This document shows positions 1 to 10,441 of a stretch of DNA of 64,000 nt, in pieces. Position 1 is the first letter of the stretch. Each line of letters opens with the position of its first letter. Made by a program: the position numbers and the translations under genes. The notes below the pieces were generated by a model. The model searched no databases. It saw only the letters and a program-made list of their open reading frames with translations, and was not told where the DNA came from. Source of the stretch: a bacterium (GTDB lineage Bacteria > SAR324 > NAC60-12); contig CBDDTI010000295.1 in assembly GCA_965233585.1 (NCBI GenBank), positions 1-64,000 on the forward strand, in the 5' to 3' direction.

Positions 1-354
1 AATCTTGGATACATAAAAGCTAACCAACCGCTATGGCTTCGGGTGCCATAGACATTTTGTAGAAAATCGGTGGTATTTTCATCTAAACCAAAGTTTTCTA
101 TAAGGTCGGCTTCGTCTGTTTTAAAATTGTCGTTGTAAATAAAGTTTTCGCTTTTGGTGTTATAGGGTGGGTCTATATAAATCATTTTGATTTTCTCAAA
201 ATAATTTTGTTTGAGAATTTTGAGGACTTCTAGGTTATCGCCACGAATGACTACATTTTGAGATTGCGAGTTTCTGGATTCCGTGTCAAGCCTGCAATGA
301 CTGGTACCGTTGACATTGTCACCATTCCGTACTGGATTCTCCCCCTTTTTCAAA
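1..354 (-). pseudogene. mod: Type III R-M DNA methyltransferase (Mod), downstream fragment; continues off the left edge of the window
   Basis: Not in the ORF track. Manual minus-strand translation gives QNVVIRGDNLEVLKILKQNYFEKIKMIYIDPPYNTKSENFIYNDNF...SHSGWLAFMYPR, with the GDNL, DPPY and HSxWLxFMYPRL motifs of type III Mod. Separated from its N-terminus by the insertion at 355-2896. Confidence 0.93.
260..301. repeat. REP-like palindromic element lying in frame inside mod
   Basis: GAGATTGCGAG...GGATTCCGTGTCAAGCCTGCAATGAC matches the intergenic repeat family GTCATT(C/G)CG-N-CTTGA-N-CG(G/C)AATC seen at 709-1014, 21393-21676 and 34303-34800. Confidence 0.8.
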
Positions 355-656
355 GGCAGTGTTTAGTTGGTATTGTCATTGCATGTGAGAGTGAATTTGA
401 GGAATGGAAATGGGAAGTTGTCATCATTGTGGGAGTCAGACTTATATCAAGAATGGAAGTTACAAAGGGGTTCAGAGGTATCGTTGCAAGTCATGTCAGA
501 GAGCATTCACCTCAAATGGGTTGAGAATCCCACTAGAGACCAAGCGTCAAGCCTTAGAGATGTATGTCAATAGTGTAGGCATCAGAAAGATCGCTCGTTT
601 TTTGCAGGTGTCTCCCGCTTCAATTGTCAACTGGATCAAAAAAGCTAGAGTGTCTC
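355..656 (+). mobile_element. Truncated IS1-family copy (left end and partial insA)
   Basis: Near-identical to 2124-2425, with two amino-acid differences in InsA (G/R, R/K). Identity stops after GTGTCTC at 656. ORF 404-724 is a Zn-ribbon/HTH InsA with a read-through tail. Confidence 0.9.
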
Positions 657-708
657 CTTCACTGAAGGGGAATAAGAAGACGAAAAAACAAGCCTGCAAA
701 CTCCCTTT

Positions 709-1014
709 GTCATTCCGCACTTGATGCGGAATCTCAACAAAGAAGAATGAGATTGCGGGTCAAGCCCGCAATGACGGTTGTTTAGAGCTTGTAGGTCAAG
801 ATGAGTAATGACGTCAACTTAGTCATTCCGTGCTTGATGCGGAATCTATCTTAAACCAAGCACAGATTCCTACATGACTGGATTCCTGCTTTCGCTCCGA
901 ATGACAATAGTAGTCATTCCGCACTTGATGCGGAATCTCAACAAAGAAGAATGAGATTGCGGGTCAGGTCCCGCAGACGCCAACTTAGTCATTCCGTGCT
1001 TGACGCGGAATCTC
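709..1014. repeat. Cluster of REP/BIME-like palindromes
   Basis: Alternating GTCATTCCGCACTTGATGCGGAATCTC and GAGATTGCGGGTCAAGCCCGCAATGAC units. About 709-761 is duplicated at about 913-965. Confidence 0.88.
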
Positions 1015-1113
1015 AAAAAATAAGAACCGTTTGAGAAAAAAGCGAATAAATGGGGAAAAGAAGTAGAGACAAAAAGTGAGATTGCTCACTCAAGGTGAGC
1101 CATGACAGCGTTT

Positions 1114-1716
1114 TTATTTGGCAGGAGGAAGAAAAGAAAACAAAAAAGCTAATACGACTCCAAGCGTCACCAGATTTAAAGAAATGCCAAAACCCACCAT
1201 CCATTTCAGGAGTTTTTGCTCTCCTTTTAAAGAATAGACGTCTTCTCTGACATTCTGAATGTCTTCTTTCAACTCATCTCTGACATTTTGAATGTCTTCT
1301 TTCAGTTCATCTTTGACGTCTTTGATTTCATTTCTGACATTTTGAATGTCTTCTTTCAGTTCATCTTTGACGTCTTTGATTTCATCTCTGACATTTTGAA
1401 TGTCTTCTTTCAGTTCATCTTTGACGTCTTTGATTTCATCTCTGACATTTTGAATGTCTTCTTTCAGTTCATCTTTGACGTCTTTGATTTCATTTCTGAC
1501 ATTTTGAATGTCTTCTTTAGTGGCTTTTTGCTCCAGTTTTTCATTAAGACTTGTCTCTAAACCAGAAATTTGCTCTTTAGTAGAAAGTTTTGCAAAGTTG
1601 CTTTCTACCACAAACTTAAATTCTTCTGTCAATGCCTCTGCTTGCTCTTGTTCAAAGCCTGCAGCTTGCAAGTGTTTGGAAGTCTTGAGTGTGTCAAAAA
1701 GTAATGCGGTTTCCAT
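1114..1716 (-). CDS. DUF1640/CCDC90/Bdr-like coiled-coil protein with C-terminal membrane anchor
   Basis: N-terminal FDT...L..AGF..EQAEAL head, ATKED neck motif, repetitive coiled coil and a hydrophobic C-terminal helix (LLKWMVGFGISLNLVTLGVVLAFLF). Confidence 0.85.
   Translation of the reverse strand: METALLFDTLKTSKHLQAAGFEQEQAEALTEEFKFVVESNFAKLSTKEQISGLETSLNEKLEQKATKEDIQNVRNEIKDVKDELKEDIQNVRDEIKDVKDELKEDIQNVRDEIKDVKDELKEDIQNVRNEIKDVKDELKEDIQNVRDELKEDIQNVREDVYSLKGEQKLLKWMVGFGISLNLVTLGVVLAFLFSFLPPAK
1245..1517 (-). repeat. 54-bp coding tandem repeat (KEDIQNVR[N/D]EIKDVKDEL x4, plus shorter 11-aa units)
   Basis: Near-perfect DNA repeats are directly visible. Confidence 0.95.
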
Positions 1717-1822
1717 CAGCCGATAAGTGAGAATGTCAAAACCAGAATCATAACAAATTTAAAGACAAAATGGAAATAAAGAGAAAAAAAGAAAAGAAAA
1801 GCGAGAAGTTTGAAAGAAGAAT

Positions 1823-2090
1823 GAGATTGCGGGTCAAGGTAAGCAATGACCAAAAAACAAGTCTGCAGGTGTCAGAGTAGGGACAAACCCAAGTGTTTGT
1901 CCTGTGTTTTAAGAAAAAAAGAAGAGATTGCGGGTCAAGGCGAGCAATGACCAAAAAACAAGTCTGCAGGTGTCAGAGTAGGGACAAACCCAAGTGTTTG
2001 TCCTGTGTTTTAAGAAAAAAAGAAGAGATTGCGGGTCAAGGTGAGCAATGACGGTTGTTTAGAGCTTGTAGGTCAAGGTAAGCAATGACG
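1823..2090. repeat. REP cluster with a 101-bp tandem duplication containing a GTAG-type REP
   Basis: GAGATTGCGGGTCAAGG recurs at 1823, 1924 and 2025. Each of the two complete units contains GTAGGGACAAACCCAAGTGTTTGTCCTG. Confidence 0.88.
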
Positions 2091-2123
2091 AAAGGCAAAG
2101 TGTTTCAATTCCCCTCCATTGGA

Positions 2124-2896
2124 GGCAGTGTTTAGTTGGTATTGTCATTGCATGTGAGAGTGAATTTGAGGAATGGAAATGAGAAGTTGTCATCATTGTG
2201 GGAGTCAGACTTATATCAAGAATGGAAGTTACAAAGGGGTTCAGAGGTATCGTTGCAAGTCATGTCAGAAAGCATTCACCTCAAATGGGTTGAGAATCCC
2301 ACTAGAGACCAAGCGTCAAGCCTTAGAGATGTATGTCAATAGTGTAGGCATCAGAAAGATCGCTCGTTTTTTGCAGGTGTCTCCCGCTTCAATTGTCAAC
2401 TGGATCAAAAAAGCTAGAGTGTCTCAACTTCCAAAAGACGCACCAAGTTTCCATGCACAAGTAGATAGTATAGAGATGGATGAGATCTACACTTTTGTTC
2501 AAAAAAAAGCCAAAGAGTAGCTGTTTGGACAGCCTATTCTCGTCAAGAACAATGTGTGATTGCCTTTGTGATAGGCAAAGGATTAGCAGCAGCAAAGAAG
2601 CTGTATGCACTAGTCAAAGCACAACGAGCTAGAATTGAAACGATTTATACAGATGCCAACTCATGCTATCAAGTGGCATTTGCACAACTCCAAATTCCAC
2701 AAAAGCATCAGATAGGCAAGGACAACACTCATCTCATTGAATCTTCTAATTCTTCCATCAGAGATAACCTAGCTCGCTTGATGAGAAAATCTAAACGACA
2801 TTCCAAAACTTTTGACATGCTGGAACACTCTCTACAACTCTTCTTTGACTATAAAAGGTTTGAAAAATATCATGCCAATATCAAGTGAACACTGCC
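2124..2896 (+). mobile_element. Complete IS1-family insertion sequence (773 bp)
   Basis: Imperfect terminal IRs GGCAGTGTTTAGTTGGTATTGTCAT and GGCAGTGTTCACTTGATATTGGCAT (reverse complement). insA/insB arrangement and length typical of IS1. Confidence 0.93.
2173..2888 (+). CDS. IS1-family transposase InsAB, via a probable -1 programmed frameshift
   Basis: InsA 2173-2520 (CxxC...CxxC, HTH, ends EMDEIYTFVQKK). A8 slippery run at 2501-2508. The -1 frame continues SQRVAVWTAYSR...IYTD...HLIESSNSSIRDNLARL, the DDE core. Confidence 0.88.
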
Positions 2897-3210
2897 TTTT
2901 TCAAAGGGGGCAAGGGGGATTTAGATTGCCCTGCTTCAAATTGTAATTCAAATTCTGTTTCACTATCGGCTTTGGCACGTGCGATTCCTTTACCTGCAAA
3001 GGTGAGTTCGTAGCCTTTGTTGTTGCTGGTCGTTTGTGCAATATCTACAAAATCTTGTAAGGCGTTGATGTTAAGTTGTCCATCGCTATTGACTAAATGA
3101 GGGATTAGCTTTTTAAGGGCTTGTAGCTTTTGGTTTTTTTCTTGTTGTAAAGATTTGTTAGGTTCAATGGTTTTGATACCGTTTGCCTGTGCTTGTTTTT
3201 TATCTATCAT
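2897..3210 (-). pseudogene. mod: Type III Mod methyltransferase, N-terminal fragment
   Basis: MIDKKQ...LKKLIPHLVNSDGQLNINALQ...KGYELTFAGKGIA resembles Mod N-termini. It joins the 1-354 fragment in frame once the transposon and one copy of the duplication are removed. Confidence 0.85.
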
Positions 3211-3217
3211 TTTCAAG

Positions 3218-4204
3218 TTATATTTTAGTATGGAGTAAAAGCATGACAATCCCTATCATTTTTTCCTGATCATTAGGGTTGGATTCGGCAATTAAAATGG
3301 TCAACGTTGCTAAAGTTTCAGGGCTTATTTTCTTGGTAAAATTAAAGCCTGCTTTTTGCAAAAACCAAATAAAAGCAAATGCTGCACTGCGTTTGTTTCC
3401 ATCATTGAAAGAGTAATTTTTAACGATAAAATACAGCAAATGGGCGGCTTTTTGTTCTACACTTGGATAAGCATCTTCACCAAAAATCGTTTGAAAAACA
3501 TTGCCAATAATTCCTTTTAAATTTCCGCTTTTCTTTTCTTGTGCAAAAAGGTCAGTCGCTTCTTTTCTGTCTATGAGTTCCAATTTTAATTTTTCTAAAT
3601 CTTGCTGTAACTTTTCTGCGGAAATTTGTATTTCGGTTTGAGTTCCTTTTTGCGGAAAAGAATTTTTATCAAAACAATCCAAAGTCAACCAAGTTGGAGC
3701 AAAGCTTTTTATAAGTTCTAAAATATCTGATGCTTGTATAGTTTTATTATCTTTAATGAGTTGTTTCACATCTTCCACCGCTTGTAAAAATTCTTGGTGG
3801 TTTTGCTGGAGGCGATGTTGATTGATAGTAAAGCCTTTGGTGATGTGTTGTTTAAGTGTCTGGGTTGCCCATTTACGAAAAGCAATTGCCCTTGATGAAT
3901 TGGTTCTATATCCAACCGCTAAAATAATATCCAAAGAATAATAGGCTACGGGCTTATCAGAATGTGCAATATGCAAAAACTGCATATTGCTTTTTTCATC
4001 TACTTCGTTGTCCTTAAATATGTTGCGAATATGACGCGATATAACCGACTGGTCTTTCTCATACAACAGGGTTAAATCTTTTTGACTTGCCCAAATCGTT
4101 TCGTTGTCAGCATCGGTTTTCAGTTGCAATGCTCCGTCTTTGGTTTGGTAAATGGCGAAGGGAGCTTGTGGTTTTTCAGGAGGCATTTTTATATGTTTTT
4201 TCAA
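3218..4204 (-). CDS. RhuM/Fic-DOC family protein
   Basis: RhuM-like N-terminus (ETIWASQ, YYSLDIILAVGYRTNS...FRKWAT) plus a Fic/Doc domain with the degenerate motif NYSFNDGNKR. Confidence 0.9.
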   Translation of the reverse strand: MKKHIKMPPEKPQAPFAIYQTKDGALQLKTDADNETIWASQKDLTLLYEKDQSVISRHIRNIFKDNEVDEKSNMQFLHIAHSDKPVAYYSLDIILAVGYRTNSSRAIAFRKWATQTLKQHITKGFTINQHRLQQNHQEFLQAVEDVKQLIKDNKTIQASDILELIKSFAPTWLTLDCFDKNSFPQKGTQTEIQISAEKLQQDLEKLKLELIDRKEATDLFAQEKKSGNLKGIIGNVFQTIFGEDAYPSVEQKAAHLLYFIVKNYSFNDGNKRSAAFAFIWFLQKAGFNFTKKISPETLATLTILIAESNPNDQEKMIGIVMLLLHTKI

Positions 4205-4216
4205 CGTCTCTAATTG

Positions 4217-4297
4217 TTAGTTTTGATGCTCGGCTTGCGTTTGTGAGCTGTCAATGGTGTTGATGCCTTTTGCTTGTGTGTCTTGTTTGTTTATCAT
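4217..4297 (-). pseudogene. Degenerate duplicate of the mod 5' end (26 aa)
   Basis: MINKQDTQAKGINTIDSSQTQAEHQN* resembles the Mod start MIDKKQAQANGIKTIEPNKSLQQEKN. Confidence 0.55.
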
Positions 4298-4450
4298 TGA
4301 CTAGTTGATTAAGATGAGATTATAATGCGGGATTTTGTGAAAGTGGCAGTTTGAGACACATCTTTTGCACTTCTCTATTGTTTACTTCTAAAGTTTGCTG
4401 TCATCTTATGGGGAATCAGCAAAACAGTCATACCTAATTGGATAAGTCAG

Positions 4451-4654
4451 ATGGTCACAATAAAAATTAACGATGTCATTCAGCAGTATGAAGAGGGGAC
4501 TTCTCTTTTAGAAGTCATATCCAAAGAGGTGTCTTTTTTAGAGGGCATTGCTGTGGCACTCAATCAAGAAGTCATTACCAAAAAGCAATGGTCAGGTCAA
4601 ATCTTAAAAGACCAAGATAGTATATTGGTCGTGAAAGCAAGTCAAGGAGGTTAA
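4451..4654 (+). CDS. thiS: Sulfur carrier protein ThiS
   Basis: 67 aa, IAVALNQEVI, C-terminal GG; first gene of the thi operon. Confidence 0.95.
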   Translation: MVTIKINDVIQQYEEGTSLLEVISKEVSFLEGIAVALNQEVITKKQWSGQILKDQDSILVVKASQGG

Positions 4655-6520
<1,866 letters not shown>

Positions 6521-6521
6521 C

Positions 6522-7130
6522 ATGCTGATACTTCTTTCTCCTGAAAAAGAGGCTGATGATGAAATAGACACAGTGAATGGGCTTTTTGAAGCAGGCTTGT
6601 CAGTCTATCATTTAAGAAAACCCCATAAAACTTATCAAGAACATTGTCAGTATTTAGACCAAATCCATTCAGAATATCACCACAGAATAGTCGTTCATTT
6701 TTTTGATGAATTGCTGGAAACTTACGATTTAAAGGGAGTTCATTTTAAGGAGTCGCAACGGAACAATGACGGTCTTGTTTTAACAGAAAAAGTTGATGTT
6801 TTGAAGAAGAAAGGGAAAACTGTCAGTAGTGCGTTTCATCATATTGAGGATTTGTTGACATGTCCTTTCTGCTTTGATTATCATTTACTCAGTCCTGTAT
6901 TCTCATCTATTTCAAAAAAGGGGTATCAAGGAAAAGTCTTTAATGTCAATGGCATCAATAAAGTCGTAATAGGAATGGGTGGAATCACTCCCCAAAAAAT
7001 ACCTGAAATCGTCCAACTAGGGTTTTCTGGAATTGCAGTTTTAGGAGCTGTCTGGCAAACAGTGAATCCCGTAGCAAGTTTTGCTCATCTGAAAAATAAA
7101 TATAATCTTCATTATGAAAAACAGACCTAA
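6522..7130 (+). CDS. Thiamine phosphate synthase family protein (short ThiE/TenI-like paralog)
   Basis: YHLRKP, LSPVFSSISKKGY, MGGI and AVLGAVW motifs; lies in the thi operon. Likely start is ATG 6522. Confidence 0.85.
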   Translation: MLILLSPEKEADDEIDTVNGLFEAGLSVYHLRKPHKTYQEHCQYLDQIHSEYHHRIVVHFFDELLETYDLKGVHFKESQRNNDGLVLTEKVDVLKKKGKTVSSAFHHIEDLLTCPFCFDYHLLSPVFSSISKKGYQGKVFNVNGINKVVIGMGGITPQKIPEIVQLGFSGIAVLGAVWQTVNPVASFAHLKNKYNLHYEKQT

Positions 7131-7863
7131 TGTACTCACCATTGCTGGTTTAGACCCCTCTAATGGTGCAGGATTAGTAGCTGATACCAAAACGTTTGAA
7201 GCCTTAAAATGTTATGGACTTTCGGTGTGTTCAGCAAACACTGTACAAAATGACGTGGATTTTAAGGATTGTTATTGGATTCCTAGCAAGGTGATAAACG
7301 CACAGTTACAAGTATTGTTTGCACGCTTTCAAGTAACTTATGTGAAAATTGGCATCATGCAGAATTGGAAAGAAACTTTAGCATTGATCAATGAAATTCT
7401 GAGCTATAATGCTCATGCAAAAATCATTGTAGATCCAATTCTAAAATCAAGCTCTCATTTTCATTTGAATACCGATACTGAATTTAATGTATTAGATGCA
7501 ATTTTAGAGAAGATTTATTTGTTAACTCCTAACTATCATGAAATTCAGCAATTATACCCTGCCAAAAGTATAGAGGACACTATCAAACACATGACAAGCA
7601 AAACAAACCTTCTCTTAAAAGGAGGGCATGACCCACATCAATTAGGTCAAGACAAGTTGTTTAAAAAAGGAGGGCAAATGTATGTCTTGAATCCCAAGAA
7701 AAAAAATTGCTCAAAAAAACATGGCAGCGGCTGTGTGTTAACAGCGGCAATTACTAGCTATTTAGCATTGAAAAATCCATTATTAAAAGCCTGTTACAAA
7801 GGTAAAAGATATACTGAAAAAATATTGAGTTCCAATGAAACTTTGTTGGGTTATCATGGATAA
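7114..7863 (+). CDS. thiD: Hydroxymethylpyrimidine/phosphomethylpyrimidine kinase
   Basis: VLTIAGLDPSNGAGL.AD, DP, LTPN, LKGGH and HGSGC motifs. Confidence 0.94.
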   Translation: MKNRPNVLTIAGLDPSNGAGLVADTKTFEALKCYGLSVCSANTVQNDVDFKDCYWIPSKVINAQLQVLFARFQVTYVKIGIMQNWKETLALINEILSYNAHAKIIVDPILKSSSHFHLNTDTEFNVLDAILEKIYLLTPNYHEIQQLYPAKSIEDTIKHMTSKTNLLLKGGHDPHQLGQDKLFKKGGQMYVLNPKKKNCSKKHGSGCVLTAAITSYLALKNPLLKACYKGKRYTEKILSSNETLLGYHG

Positions 7864-8482
7864 ATTATATTACATATCACAGGGGGAAACTGAAGAAAGG
7901 CAGTTGCAAAATATTAAAAATGCTTGTGATTCGGGCTGTGAATTAATTCAATTAAGAGTGAAAAATGTGCCAGAAGCACTTCATATAAGAATTGCTGAAA
8001 AAGCACTAGTCATTTGCAAAGAATATCAAGCGGCTTTGATCATTAATGACTCGGTGAGCATTGCAGAACAAATCAATGCAGAAGGTGTGCATTTAGGTAA
8101 AAATGATATGCCCCCTTTGTTAGCTAGAGAAAGACTGGGAGAGAAAAGGATCATTGGAGGAACTGCAAATACTTATGAAGATTGTCTTTCTTTAATCTGT
8201 CAGAAAGTGGATTACATTGGATTAGGTCCTTTTCAATTCACAACCACCAAAAAGAATTTAAGCCCTGTGTTGGGATTTGAAAAAGTTGCAACAATTTTAT
8301 CAAAATTGGAGTCAACGAAACATACGCCTCCTATTTATGCCATTGGTGGTATTGAAGAAAAACACATCGCTCAACTTTATGAGACAGGTGTTTATGGAGT
8401 TGCTTTTTCAGGACTACTCTCTAATAAGCCGATACATATTACCAAAAAAACAATCAAAAAATTAAGAGAATATTTTATTTAA
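7856..8482 (+). CDS. thiE: Thiamine phosphate synthase
   Basis: IQLRVK, IIND, GVHLG, GTAN, DYIGLGP..TTTK and AIGGI motifs. Confidence 0.94.
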   Translation: MDKLYYISQGETEERQLQNIKNACDSGCELIQLRVKNVPEALHIRIAEKALVICKEYQAALIINDSVSIAEQINAEGVHLGKNDMPPLLARERLGEKRIIGGTANTYEDCLSLICQKVDYIGLGPFQFTTTKKNLSPVLGFEKVATILSKLESTKHTPPIYAIGGIEEKHIAQLYETGVYGVAFSGLLSNKPIHITKKTIKKLREYFI

Positions 8483-8497
8483 AAAACGATAATAAAG

Positions 8498-9292
8498 ATG
8501 GGATTGTTACAAATAGGAGACAAAAAATTTAGTTCAAGATTATTTACAGGAACGGGGAAATTCAGTTCATCATTGTTGATGCAAGAGTCTTTGTTAGCAT
8601 CGGGTAGTGAGCTGGTGACTGTTGCTTTAAAAAGAGTAGATGTAACAGATGAACAAGATGACATTTTAAAATATTTAAAACACCCTAGAATTAATTTATT
8701 ACCCAATACTTCTGGGGTCAGAACAGCTGAAGAAGCCATTTTTGCTGCACAATTAGCACGTGAGGCTTTGGAAACAAATTGGATCAAATTAGAAATCCAT
8801 CCTGACCCAAAATACTTGTTACCCGACCCAATAGAAACATTAAAAGCGTCAGAAAGTTTGGTCAAAATGGGGTTTGTGGTCATGCCATATATTCATGCAG
8901 ACCCTGTCTTGTGTAAACGTTTAGAAGAAGTTGGGACACAATGCGTGATGCCTTTGGGGGCACCTATAGGAACTAATAAGGGATTAAAAACGTTTGATTT
9001 TTTGGAAATCATTATTGAACAAAGTAACGTGCCTGTCATTATAGATGCGGGGATTGGCAGTCCGTCTCATGCGACACAAGCTATGGAGATGGGGGCAGAT
9101 GCAGTACTCATCAATACTGCCATTGCTGTCTCTCAAAATCCTATAGAAATGGCAAAGGCTTTTCAAATGGCAGTGCAGGCAGGGAGAATGGCTTATGAGT
9201 CAAAACTAGCTCCAATGATACACAAAACAGCTCAGGCAAGTAGCCCTTTGACCTCTTTTTTAGAAAATCCATCATGTCAGCATCAAGAATAG
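8498..9292 (+). CDS. thiG: Thiazole synthase
   Basis: [29 protein letters not shown] and DAGIG motifs. Confidence 0.97.
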
Positions 9293-9298
9293 TCAACA

Positions 9299-10441
9299 AT
9301 GGTCAAAGTAAAAAACCTACCGCGAGAGTCCCCAAATTTTAAATCGGTCTTTGAAAACTATGATTGGAACTTGGTTTTACAAGAAATCTATGAAAAAACT
9401 ACCAAAGATGTAGAAAACGCATTGAACAATCCTAGAAGAAATTTAGAAGATTTTAAATCTTTAATCTCGCCATCTGCAAAACCGTATTTAGAACAAATTG
9501 CAATCATAAGTCAGCAACTGACTCAAAAAAGATTTGGCAATACTATACAAATGTATGCCCCTATGTATTTGAGCAACGAATGTCAGAATATATGTACTTA
9601 TTGCGGATTTAGTTTGACCAATAAAATTCCTCGTCAAACTTTAACAGAAGAAGAGATTTTGAAAGAAGTCACTTATATTAAATCAAAAGGATATGACCAT
9701 ATTCTTTTAGTCACAGGTGAAGCTCACAGGACAGTTGGTGTAGATTATATCAAAAATGCAATGTGTTTAATACGCAAGTATTTTTCTAATATCACCATAG
9801 AAGTACAGCCTTTAAAACAAGAGGAATACGAAACTTTGATATTGCATGGATTGTATGCAGTGTTGGTGTATCAAGAAACTTATCATAAAAGCACCTATCA
9901 AAAGCATCATCCTAAAGGGAAGAAATCCAATTTTAATTATCGTTTAGAAACGCCAGACCGTTTGGGAAGAGCAGGCGTACATAAAATAGGACTAGGCGCC
10001 TTATTTGGCTTGGAAGATTGGAGAGTAGATAGTTTCTTTACAGCATTGCATCTAAAATACCTACAAAAAACTTATTGGAAAACAAAATACTCCATCTCTT
10101 TTCCTAGACTGCGTCCACACTCTAGGGGATTGACCCCAAAAGTAGCTATGATTGATGCTGATTTAGTACAGCTGATCTGTGCTTTTAGATTATTAGACGA
10201 AGATGTAGAATTGTCTATTTCTACAAGAGAAAGTGAATGGTTTAGAGACCATATTGTGAAATTAGGGATTACTTCTATGAGTGCAGAATCAAAAACCAAC
10301 CCCGGAGGTTACACTATAAATTCACAATCATTAGAACAGTTTGAAATTTCAGATGAACGAAGTACAGAAAGTATTGTAAGCATGTTAAAATCAAACGGAT
10401 TAGAGGCAGTGTGGAAAGATTGGTCAAATAATTGGGAATAA
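9299..10441 (+). CDS. thiH: 2-iminoacetate synthase (radical SAM)
   Basis: APMYLSNECQNICTYCGF (CxxxCxxC), YQETY, ISFPRLRP and SAESKTNPGGY motifs. Confidence 0.96.
   Translation: MVKVKNLPRESPNFKSVFENYDWNLVLQEIYEKTTKDVENALNNPRRNLEDFKSLISPSAKPYLEQIAIISQQLTQKRFGNTIQMYAPMYLSNECQNICTYCGFSLTNKIPRQTLTEEEILKEVTYIKSKGYDHILLVTGEAHRTVGVDYIKNAMCLIRKYFSNITIEVQPLKQEEYETLILHGLYAVLVYQETYHKSTYQKHHPKGKKSNFNYRLETPDRLGRAGVHKIGLGALFGLEDWRVDSFFTALHLKYLQKTYWKTKYSISFPRLRPHSRGLTPKVAMIDADLVQLICAFRLLDEDVELSISTRESEWFRDHIVKLGITSMSAESKTNPGGYTINSQSLEQFEISDERSTESIVSMLKSNGLEAVWKDWSNNWE

Follow-up and report, generated by a model that had tools for sequence, protein, structure and literature searches.

Does a methylase gene that is split by an insertion sequence (IS), and whose reading frame reopens once the insert is removed, belong to a restriction-modification (R-M) system that can be switched on again? 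The question is raised by the left edge of a 64,000-nucleotide stretch of DNA from a bacterium of the SAR324 lineage (hereafter the window: contig CBDDTI010000295.1, or C295, positions 1-64000, of assembly GCA_965233585.1, or G000; position 1 is the contig start), where a type III mod gene lies in two pieces on either side of a unit bounded by IS1-family sequences. The original prediction described this unit as a composite IS1 transposon and the arrangement as a recent, in principle reversible knockout. In this study, the insertion in mod is real and recent, and it probably represents an IS1-family element in the loop of a hairpin carried in frame within mod, at an R-M locus that is dead from several independent IS hits and not switchable. 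A clean target-site duplication (TSD) and a restorable frame do not make a switch, and the knockout of mod itself is ordinary genome decay. The interest of the locus lies in a hairpin-associated IS1 lineage and in in-frame repeats that apparently expose R-M genes to it.

Structure of the split mod gene

The two mod pieces and the insert between them comprise the following features, which include arrays resembling repetitive extragenic palindromic (REP) sequences.

1..354, minus strand: methyltransferase part of mod, with DPPY at 162-173; runs off the contig start
341..354, plus strand: left half of the target hairpin, a C5 run and the TSD copy TTTTTCAAA at 346-354 (from the inverted repeat)
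355..656, plus strand: truncated left IS1, IS positions 1-302, with the 5' part of insA only (from comparison with the right copy)
657..1113, no strand: REP-like hairpin array of the cargo, beginning with the half-hairpin TTCACTGAA-GGGG (from repeats and genome-wide repeat counts)
1114..1716, minus strand: cargo gene for a CCDC90-like coiled-coil protein of 200 aa with 54-nt internal repeats (Pfam PF07798, E 1e-15)
1812..2123, no strand: second REP-like array of the cargo, terminating in the half-hairpin CCCC-TCCATTGGA (from repeats)
2124..2896, plus strand: complete 773-bp IS1-family element, with insA at 2173-2520, an A8 slippery run at 2501-2508 and the end of InsAB' at 2888 (from profiles)
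2897..2910, plus strand: right half of the target hairpin, the second TSD copy (2897-2905) and a G5 run (from the inverted repeat)
2897..3210, minus strand: 5' part of mod, N-terminal domain, codons 1-104 (from the list of open reading frames (ORFs) and a homolog search)

Both mod pieces match the same full-length Mods of ~630 aa; in one of these (P0001), residues 1-98 are matched at 79% identity and the match of the DPPY piece continues to residue 186. The 5' part has 58 longer homologs with identity of up to 79%, all but 2 of which contain PF01555, and no protein identical to mod was found among the 120 matches listed of 314. The product is a beta-class enzyme with DPPY and is related to solved type III Mods, the nearest solved relatives of a close homolog (P0004) being 6K0W and EcoP15I 4ZCF.

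That mod is split by the IS1-bounded segment 355-2896 with a perfect 9-bp duplication was confirmed: TTTTTCAAA stands at 346-354 and at 2897-2905 and abuts the IS ends GGCAGTG (355) and CACTGCC (2896), a 9-base match with a chance of ~1e-5 at the composition of the window by our own arithmetic. The insert measures 2,542 bp, and the 5' frame of mod now enters the IS end and terminates at 2881. Scripted deletion of 355-2905, that is, of the insert plus one duplicate, reopened the frame as claimed, with 219 codons, 0 stops and the exact peptide quoted in the original prediction, up to the contig edge. Since any TSD-flanked insertion restores the frame when it is removed, this read-through shows only that there is no other lesion in 657 coding bases; the window holds only 219 of the expected ~630-660 codons of mod.

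The right IS copy shows these features of the IS1 family: 773 bp, terminal inverted repeats of the form GGnnnTG, a TSD of 8-9 bp, and a zinc/HTH InsA joined to a DDE-type InsB by a frameshift. Profiles NF033558 and NF050000 match its insA and PF03400 its insB, and a -1 shift at the A8 run gives an open InsAB' fusion of 238 aa. A TSD of 8-9 bp flanks 7 of the 27 full copies in G000, as well as the unit in the window. Eleven other IS copies in G000 are at least 98% identical to the window copy, which agrees with the proposed recency of the knockout. The left copy is a 302-bp stub without InsB and without an inner end, and differs from the right copy at 2 positions. The description as a composite IS1 transposon thus holds for the TSD outside the outer ends; the cargo is flanked by one complete IS1 and one stub, not by two whole IS1s.

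G000 amounts to 12 Mb in 747 contigs and is a mix of one bacterium and other DNA. Copies of the window IS are confined to five large contigs of 2.9 Mb in total, and eukaryote-like sequence occurs at several other contig ends. The end of contig C745 is microsatellite-rich and eukaryote-like, and the bacterial contig was likely joined chimerically there. The possibility was considered that the stub and the cargo are an assembly chimera formed via IS/REP repeats, the true allele being a single IS in mod. This is quite improbable, even though near-identical IS copies are many, the C745 end shows that the assembly contains chimeric contigs and the 656/657 junction has no confirmation in other runs: no second, identical copy of the cargo exists in G000, and IS position 302, where stub and cargo join, is not the kind of repeat boundary that collapse produces. 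Contigs assembled from the short reads of three runs also match the cargo without differences at 946-1303 and 1489-1645. Such contigs span window positions 1-383 and about 2868-4400 and reach 28-30 letters into the IS at each junction, just below the 31 letters set as the rule for bridging, and this coverage is supportive only. No RNA dataset was among those listed as containing this sequence. One short-read contig extends 940 nt beyond the window edge and then ends.

The remainder of the restriction system

A tblastn search for the missing C-terminus of Mod gave a single match in G000, at C747:1418-1804, near the contig start and in a compatible orientation. The order on C747 is a partial older IS, 25 nt, a young IS (608-1380), the C-terminal 140 codons of mod (1385-1804), a cut DUF3644 gene, an IS1 of a second family (family B) and the 3' part of res. 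The 140 codons are thus severed by two IS1 copies. A TGA in the mod frame lies in the flank right of the young IS (C747:1382-1384), so even after clean excision there, mod would still have a stop ahead of its C-terminal domain, the part in contact with Res in EcoP15I (PMC4490356). The DUF3644 gene breaks off at position 79 of its 183-position profile, and the family B copy (C747:2124-2883) has a 30-nt extra end and no TSD. No linked full-length Res, with both helicase and nuclease, was found: C747 retains just the 3' 394 codons of res, and the first ~600 are gone. This piece is the sole match to profile PRK15483 in G000 (positions 621-980 of 986), and four full-length Res proteins of related loci (946-970 aa) match G000 only over residues ~576-970.

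These findings suggest that the same mod was cut again before its Res-contacting domain, if the two contig ends are joined, and that an adjacent deletion by the second IS1 family may have removed the 3' half of DUF3644 and the helicase half of res. An intact remainder of mod and an intact res had been set beforehand as the check on reversibility; if the C747 pieces are the continuation, both are broken.

The ends of C295 and C747 probably belong to one mod gene. G000 contains a single mod N-part and a single C-part, each at the start of a contig, and the bit scores of the two pieces correlate over 118 homologs (rho 0.68). Homologs predict a gap of 885-1203 nt (13 of the 14 proteins could be scored), which the 940-nt short-read overhang fits. 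A search of 87 other genomes of the phylum did not find this Mod C-terminus. Several points weigh against a single, multiply broken gene: the join between C295 and C747 is unsequenced; the middle of mod (~950 nt, with the target recognition domain and the S-adenosylmethionine-binding motif) is missing from G000, where tblastn did not find it; related genomes often have two paralogs of this Mod (loci L024/L025); and the short-read entry into the IS is 28-30 letters only, from three runs of one study, one of which may be the source sample. The C747 pieces might then be a second decayed paralog, with the remainder of the window mod intact in the assembly gap and the gene a single-hit pseudogene. 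A remnant of a second mod start upstream in the window, the gapped assembly and the paralog pairs in relatives would suit this explanation, which we nevertheless consider rather unlikely given that the only N-part and the only C-part both stand at contig starts, oriented compatibly, and that the overhang matches the missing length. Restriction would be lost in this case too, unless res is also in the gap, because G000 has no full res of the subfamily.

With the two contig ends taken as one gene, the best outcome of excision at the window site would be an orphan methylase lacking its C-terminus, with no restriction. A phasevarion-like ON/OFF switch, in which a single reversible IS knockout controls an otherwise intact type III system, is therefore very improbable, and the claim that methylation and the barrier to incoming DNA could be restored is not supported, given the second cut with its in-frame TGA and the 5'-deleted res. 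The perfect TSD, the open read-through and an intact, young IS are what such a switch would show, and precise excision has been reported for the hairpin-associated IS186 (PMC3861542). Against it, no simple sequence repeat (SSR) of the phasevarion type is present in the three sequenced mod pieces, and no empty-allele joint appears among the 15 of 47 short-read joints listed. IS events are typically low-frequency, unidirectional and non-phase-variable according to a review (PMC11868660), and on excision PMC4687120 yielded model parameters only.

The frames of two further type III-like mod/res pairs are open (on C746 near 722-730 kb and on C747 near 107-115 kb), so on sequence grounds the cell would not lack a type III-like barrier. 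The five large contigs contain 26 matches to the DNA methylase family PF01555, several with stops or adjoining IS1 family B; this part of the assembly is very R-M-rich and decaying.

Hairpin sites of the IS1 lineage

The empty mod site folds into a hairpin with an 8-bp stem and a 3-nt loop. Ends of this IS lineage in general abut C-run/G-run hairpins, and the 9-bp duplication takes in the loop and the inner part of the stem. In G000, GGG starts 9-11 nt outward of 48 of the 62 window-type IS ends, compared with 2.1% of random sites; after removal of identical flanks the pattern remains in 41 of 55 ends, and G is enriched at outward positions 10-13. Most copies thus sit at a fixed register in palindromic repeats, as in REP-targeting ISs, and the AT-rich target preference typical of IS1 is not seen. 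The second IS1 family in the same genome shows the pattern at 0 of 69 ends, and its TSDs are AT-rich.

The same pattern was found outside G000. Metagenomic relatives with 39-56% identity show it in 72 of 79 flanks, against 3.8 expected from the local background (46 loci, 41 with at least one end called by matching the inverted repeat of the window IS). A cruder way of calling ends extended the inverted repeats into the palindromes, gave 56 of 76 flanks and was replaced by this matching. More distant plasmid IS1s have the pattern in 0 of 12 flanks (6 of 10 loci with inverted-repeat pairs). All comparison groups were defined by transposase similarity, not by flanks. In the tree, a branch supported at 87/84 sets the 48 related rows apart; one locus (L103) was omitted as too short. 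Across 44 genomes of the family, the DNA of the window IS gave 1 weak 35-bp match.

The transposase may pick the hairpin as its target, as the fixed register in divergent relatives would suggest. Some observations speak against such a conclusion. The branch support is not starred and comes from 115 columns only. The flanks are non-independent, through duplication in G000 and near-identical metagenomic loci, so binomial p-values overstate the significance. Their own TSD is kept by only 7 of the 27 full G000 copies and 10 of 39 relatives, and many flanks are rearranged. No G run adjoins 14 of the 62 ends, and an 8.8-kb unit on C745 lies in an AT-rich site. The hairpin bias could also arise partly from selection for harmless sites instead of transposase choice. 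Free perfect targets appear to be few, since counts of CCCC-N-GGGG rise only mildly at 10-11-nt spacing (21 and 11, versus 0-14 at other spacings). A literature search retrieved no report of REP or hairpin targeting by the IS1 family, although ISfinder and key reviews lay outside the search and absence from print is not established; nothing was found on IS in mod of symbionts.

In-frame repeats in R-M genes

The hairpin that received the IS is part of a longer insert in mod.

261..345, minus strand: downstream part of the in-frame REP-like insert in mod, which together with 2897-2919 adds a net 31 aa relative to most homologs (from motif spacing)

The spacing from F.GKG to GDNL is 69 aa in the mod read-through and 38 aa in 84 of the 94 scorable homologs (140 proteins compared, 46 not scorable), and own inserts of 18-79 aa occur at the same place in 7 of 93, one regex miss having been dropped. 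Hence, mod carries an in-frame REP-like insert at a site where several homologs carry inserts too. Three Mods from other assemblies (P0002, P0011 and P0021; 788-824 aa, open frames) have long repeat-derived inserts before GDNL; in P0011 and P0021 inserts also precede DIGY, and the GDNL and DIGY places are both IS-struck here.

On the five large contigs, 383 repeat matches were found, 12 of them inside 5 of the 1,488 ORFs of at least 250 aa. Three of these five ORFs are R-M genes, namely a res fragment, a type III Mod and a type ISP enzyme. Of the 62 IS ends examined, 15 abut an open frame of at least 100 codons, and 5 of the 15 are in R-M genes: two in the window mod, two at type IIG pieces on C745 (matches to Eco57I and TaqI_C) and one on C747, where the gene contains RLDAEYY and is read from this motif alone as a putative specificity subunit. 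An unoccupied hairpin of the same type is located on C729, where an Eco57I-type gene meets its neighbour. In-frame repeats therefore appear to expose R-M genes to the hairpin-associated IS1, in one genome and with small numbers.

Two open frames on C747 are candidate landing pads, both unoccupied: a type ISP enzyme of 1,547 aa (C747:164936-169576) with 4 internal repeat matches, and a type III Mod of 715 aa (C747:107301-109445) with 3. No RAYT/Y1 transposase for the repeats was found in G000, which is 92% complete, and the NCBIfam RPE models gave no match on 6 proteins at E up to 1.

Formation of the IS-bounded unit

A paralogous IS-CCDC90-IS unit with the same inner half-hairpin junctions is present at C745:289085-286627. 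CCDC90-like genes have 22 paralogous starts in G000, including that at 1114-1716 of the window, and 8 of the 22 are within 1.3 kb of a window-type IS. The left stub in the window is of the young type, with 2 changes from the right copy versus 25 from the left copy on C745, and mosaic young/old IS copies exist in G000. At the junction between stub and cargo there is microhomology of 2 nt to the older-type right end, or of 1 nt to the young type.

CCDC90-like genes fenced by REP arrays may thus have received IS copies on both sides, which would give rise to IS-CCDC90-IS units. One such unit may have reached mod either by transposition as a whole or by recombination of a cargo circle into a resident single IS; both routes fit, and we see no reason to favour one over the other. 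A later deletion, at 1-2 nt of microhomology, would have taken away most of the left IS of the unit in mod.

The CCDC90-like family is expanded in G000, with a near-identical N-terminus and a variable heptad-repeat length. The C745 unit is contained in the 8.8-kb unit mentioned above (C745:286627-295420), which has IS copies in inverted orientation at its two ends, is flanked by an 8-bp AT-rich TSD and carries three CCDC90-like genes and a 1,085-aa lipoprotein-like ORF. At C745:329045-335282, four CCDC90-like genes are arrayed with three IS copies and adjoin a TaqI_C-domain gene piece.

Neighbouring genes

The features upstream of mod are as follows.

3218..4204, minus strand: RhuM/Fic-domain gene directly upstream of mod (Pfam PF13310, PF02661)
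4217..4297, minus strand: 26-codon remnant of another mod start, upstream of the RhuM/Fic gene (from a 56-nt repeat, 77% alike, and the translation)

RhuM/Fic-related genes also lie upstream of mod at two related loci (L025 and L031). The remnant suggests an earlier tandem mod arrangement resembling that on C746. A thiamine biosynthesis cluster with thiS/C/E/D/E/G/H-like ORFs, named from their translations, occupies 4451-10441.

Implications

Taken together, we propose tentatively, and with slightly less than even confidence, that an undescribed and widespread IS1-family clade with a 238-aa DDE transposase inserts specifically into C-run/G-run hairpins of ~18 bp, that in-frame REP inserts tolerated in R-M genes serve as its landing pads, and that in this way the IS selectively knocks out restriction systems and carries REP-fenced CCDC90-like genes into them. 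If the transposase sets the target, REP targeting would be extended to the IS1 family, and the lineage would provide, for study or use, a very small DDE transposase whose palindromic target is defined. Defence genes could then be lost in two steps, a tolerated in-frame repeat followed by an IS in that repeat.

Comparison with known systems

Classical IS1 and Tn9-type elements are characterized by a length of ~770 bp, GG...TG ends, an insA/insB -1 shift on an A run, a TSD of 8-9 bp, adjacent deletions and IS-bounded units, and an AT-rich target preference is typical of IS1 but not defining. The window element resembles them in size, ends, A-run shift, TSD, adjacent deletions and IS-bounded units. 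It differs in that its lineage lies in G/C-run hairpins, whereas family B (0/69) and plasmid IS1s (0/12) do not. Unlike in Tn9, only 302 bp remain of the left copy, and a CCDC90-like gene set in REP arrays forms the cargo.

The mod product resembles type III Mods (the M.HpyAXI-like 6K0W and EcoP15I 4ZCF) in its beta class, N-terminal domain, DPPY and C-terminal domain, with res in a probable operon. In contrast to type III phasevarions, the window mod has no SSR or invertible element and is multiply broken, and its res is 5'-deleted.

REPs of the CGTC type and the Rickettsia repeats RPE-4/RPE-6 are mostly intergenic palindromes that sometimes stand in frame and add 20-30 aa (PMC3733652). As for the CGTC REPs (PMC3733652), no Y1 transposase was found for the window repeats. 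The in-frame copies here differ in being concentrated in R-M genes (3 of 5 long ORFs) and occupied by IS. The C5/G5 hairpin hit by the IS is not CGTC-tagged and adjoins a CGTC-tagged repeat, which is placed in that family by resemblance alone.

In general, the DNA upstream of ISs is enriched in terminator-like hairpins (PMC13548323), and REP targeting has been reported for IS1397/ISKpn1 and ISPsy8 (IS3), IS621/ISPpu9/ISPpu10 (IS110), ISRm22 (IS4), ISRm5 (IS256) and ISNm1106 (IS5) (PMC1525189, PMC3184786). For IS1 of Shigella, REP association was 6/101 (PMC1525189, Table 1). Like the REP-targeting ISs, the window lineage has copies in palindromic repeats, often at the symmetry axis, and like ISRm22 it has mismatched TSDs from recombination between copies, here in 20 of 27 full copies. 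Unlike them, the window element belongs to the IS1 family, outside the five families named in these sources (PMC1525189, PMC3184786), and its target is a hairpin of a C run, 9 bp and a G run that recurs across relatives from many metagenomes, with some of the targets inside coding frames.

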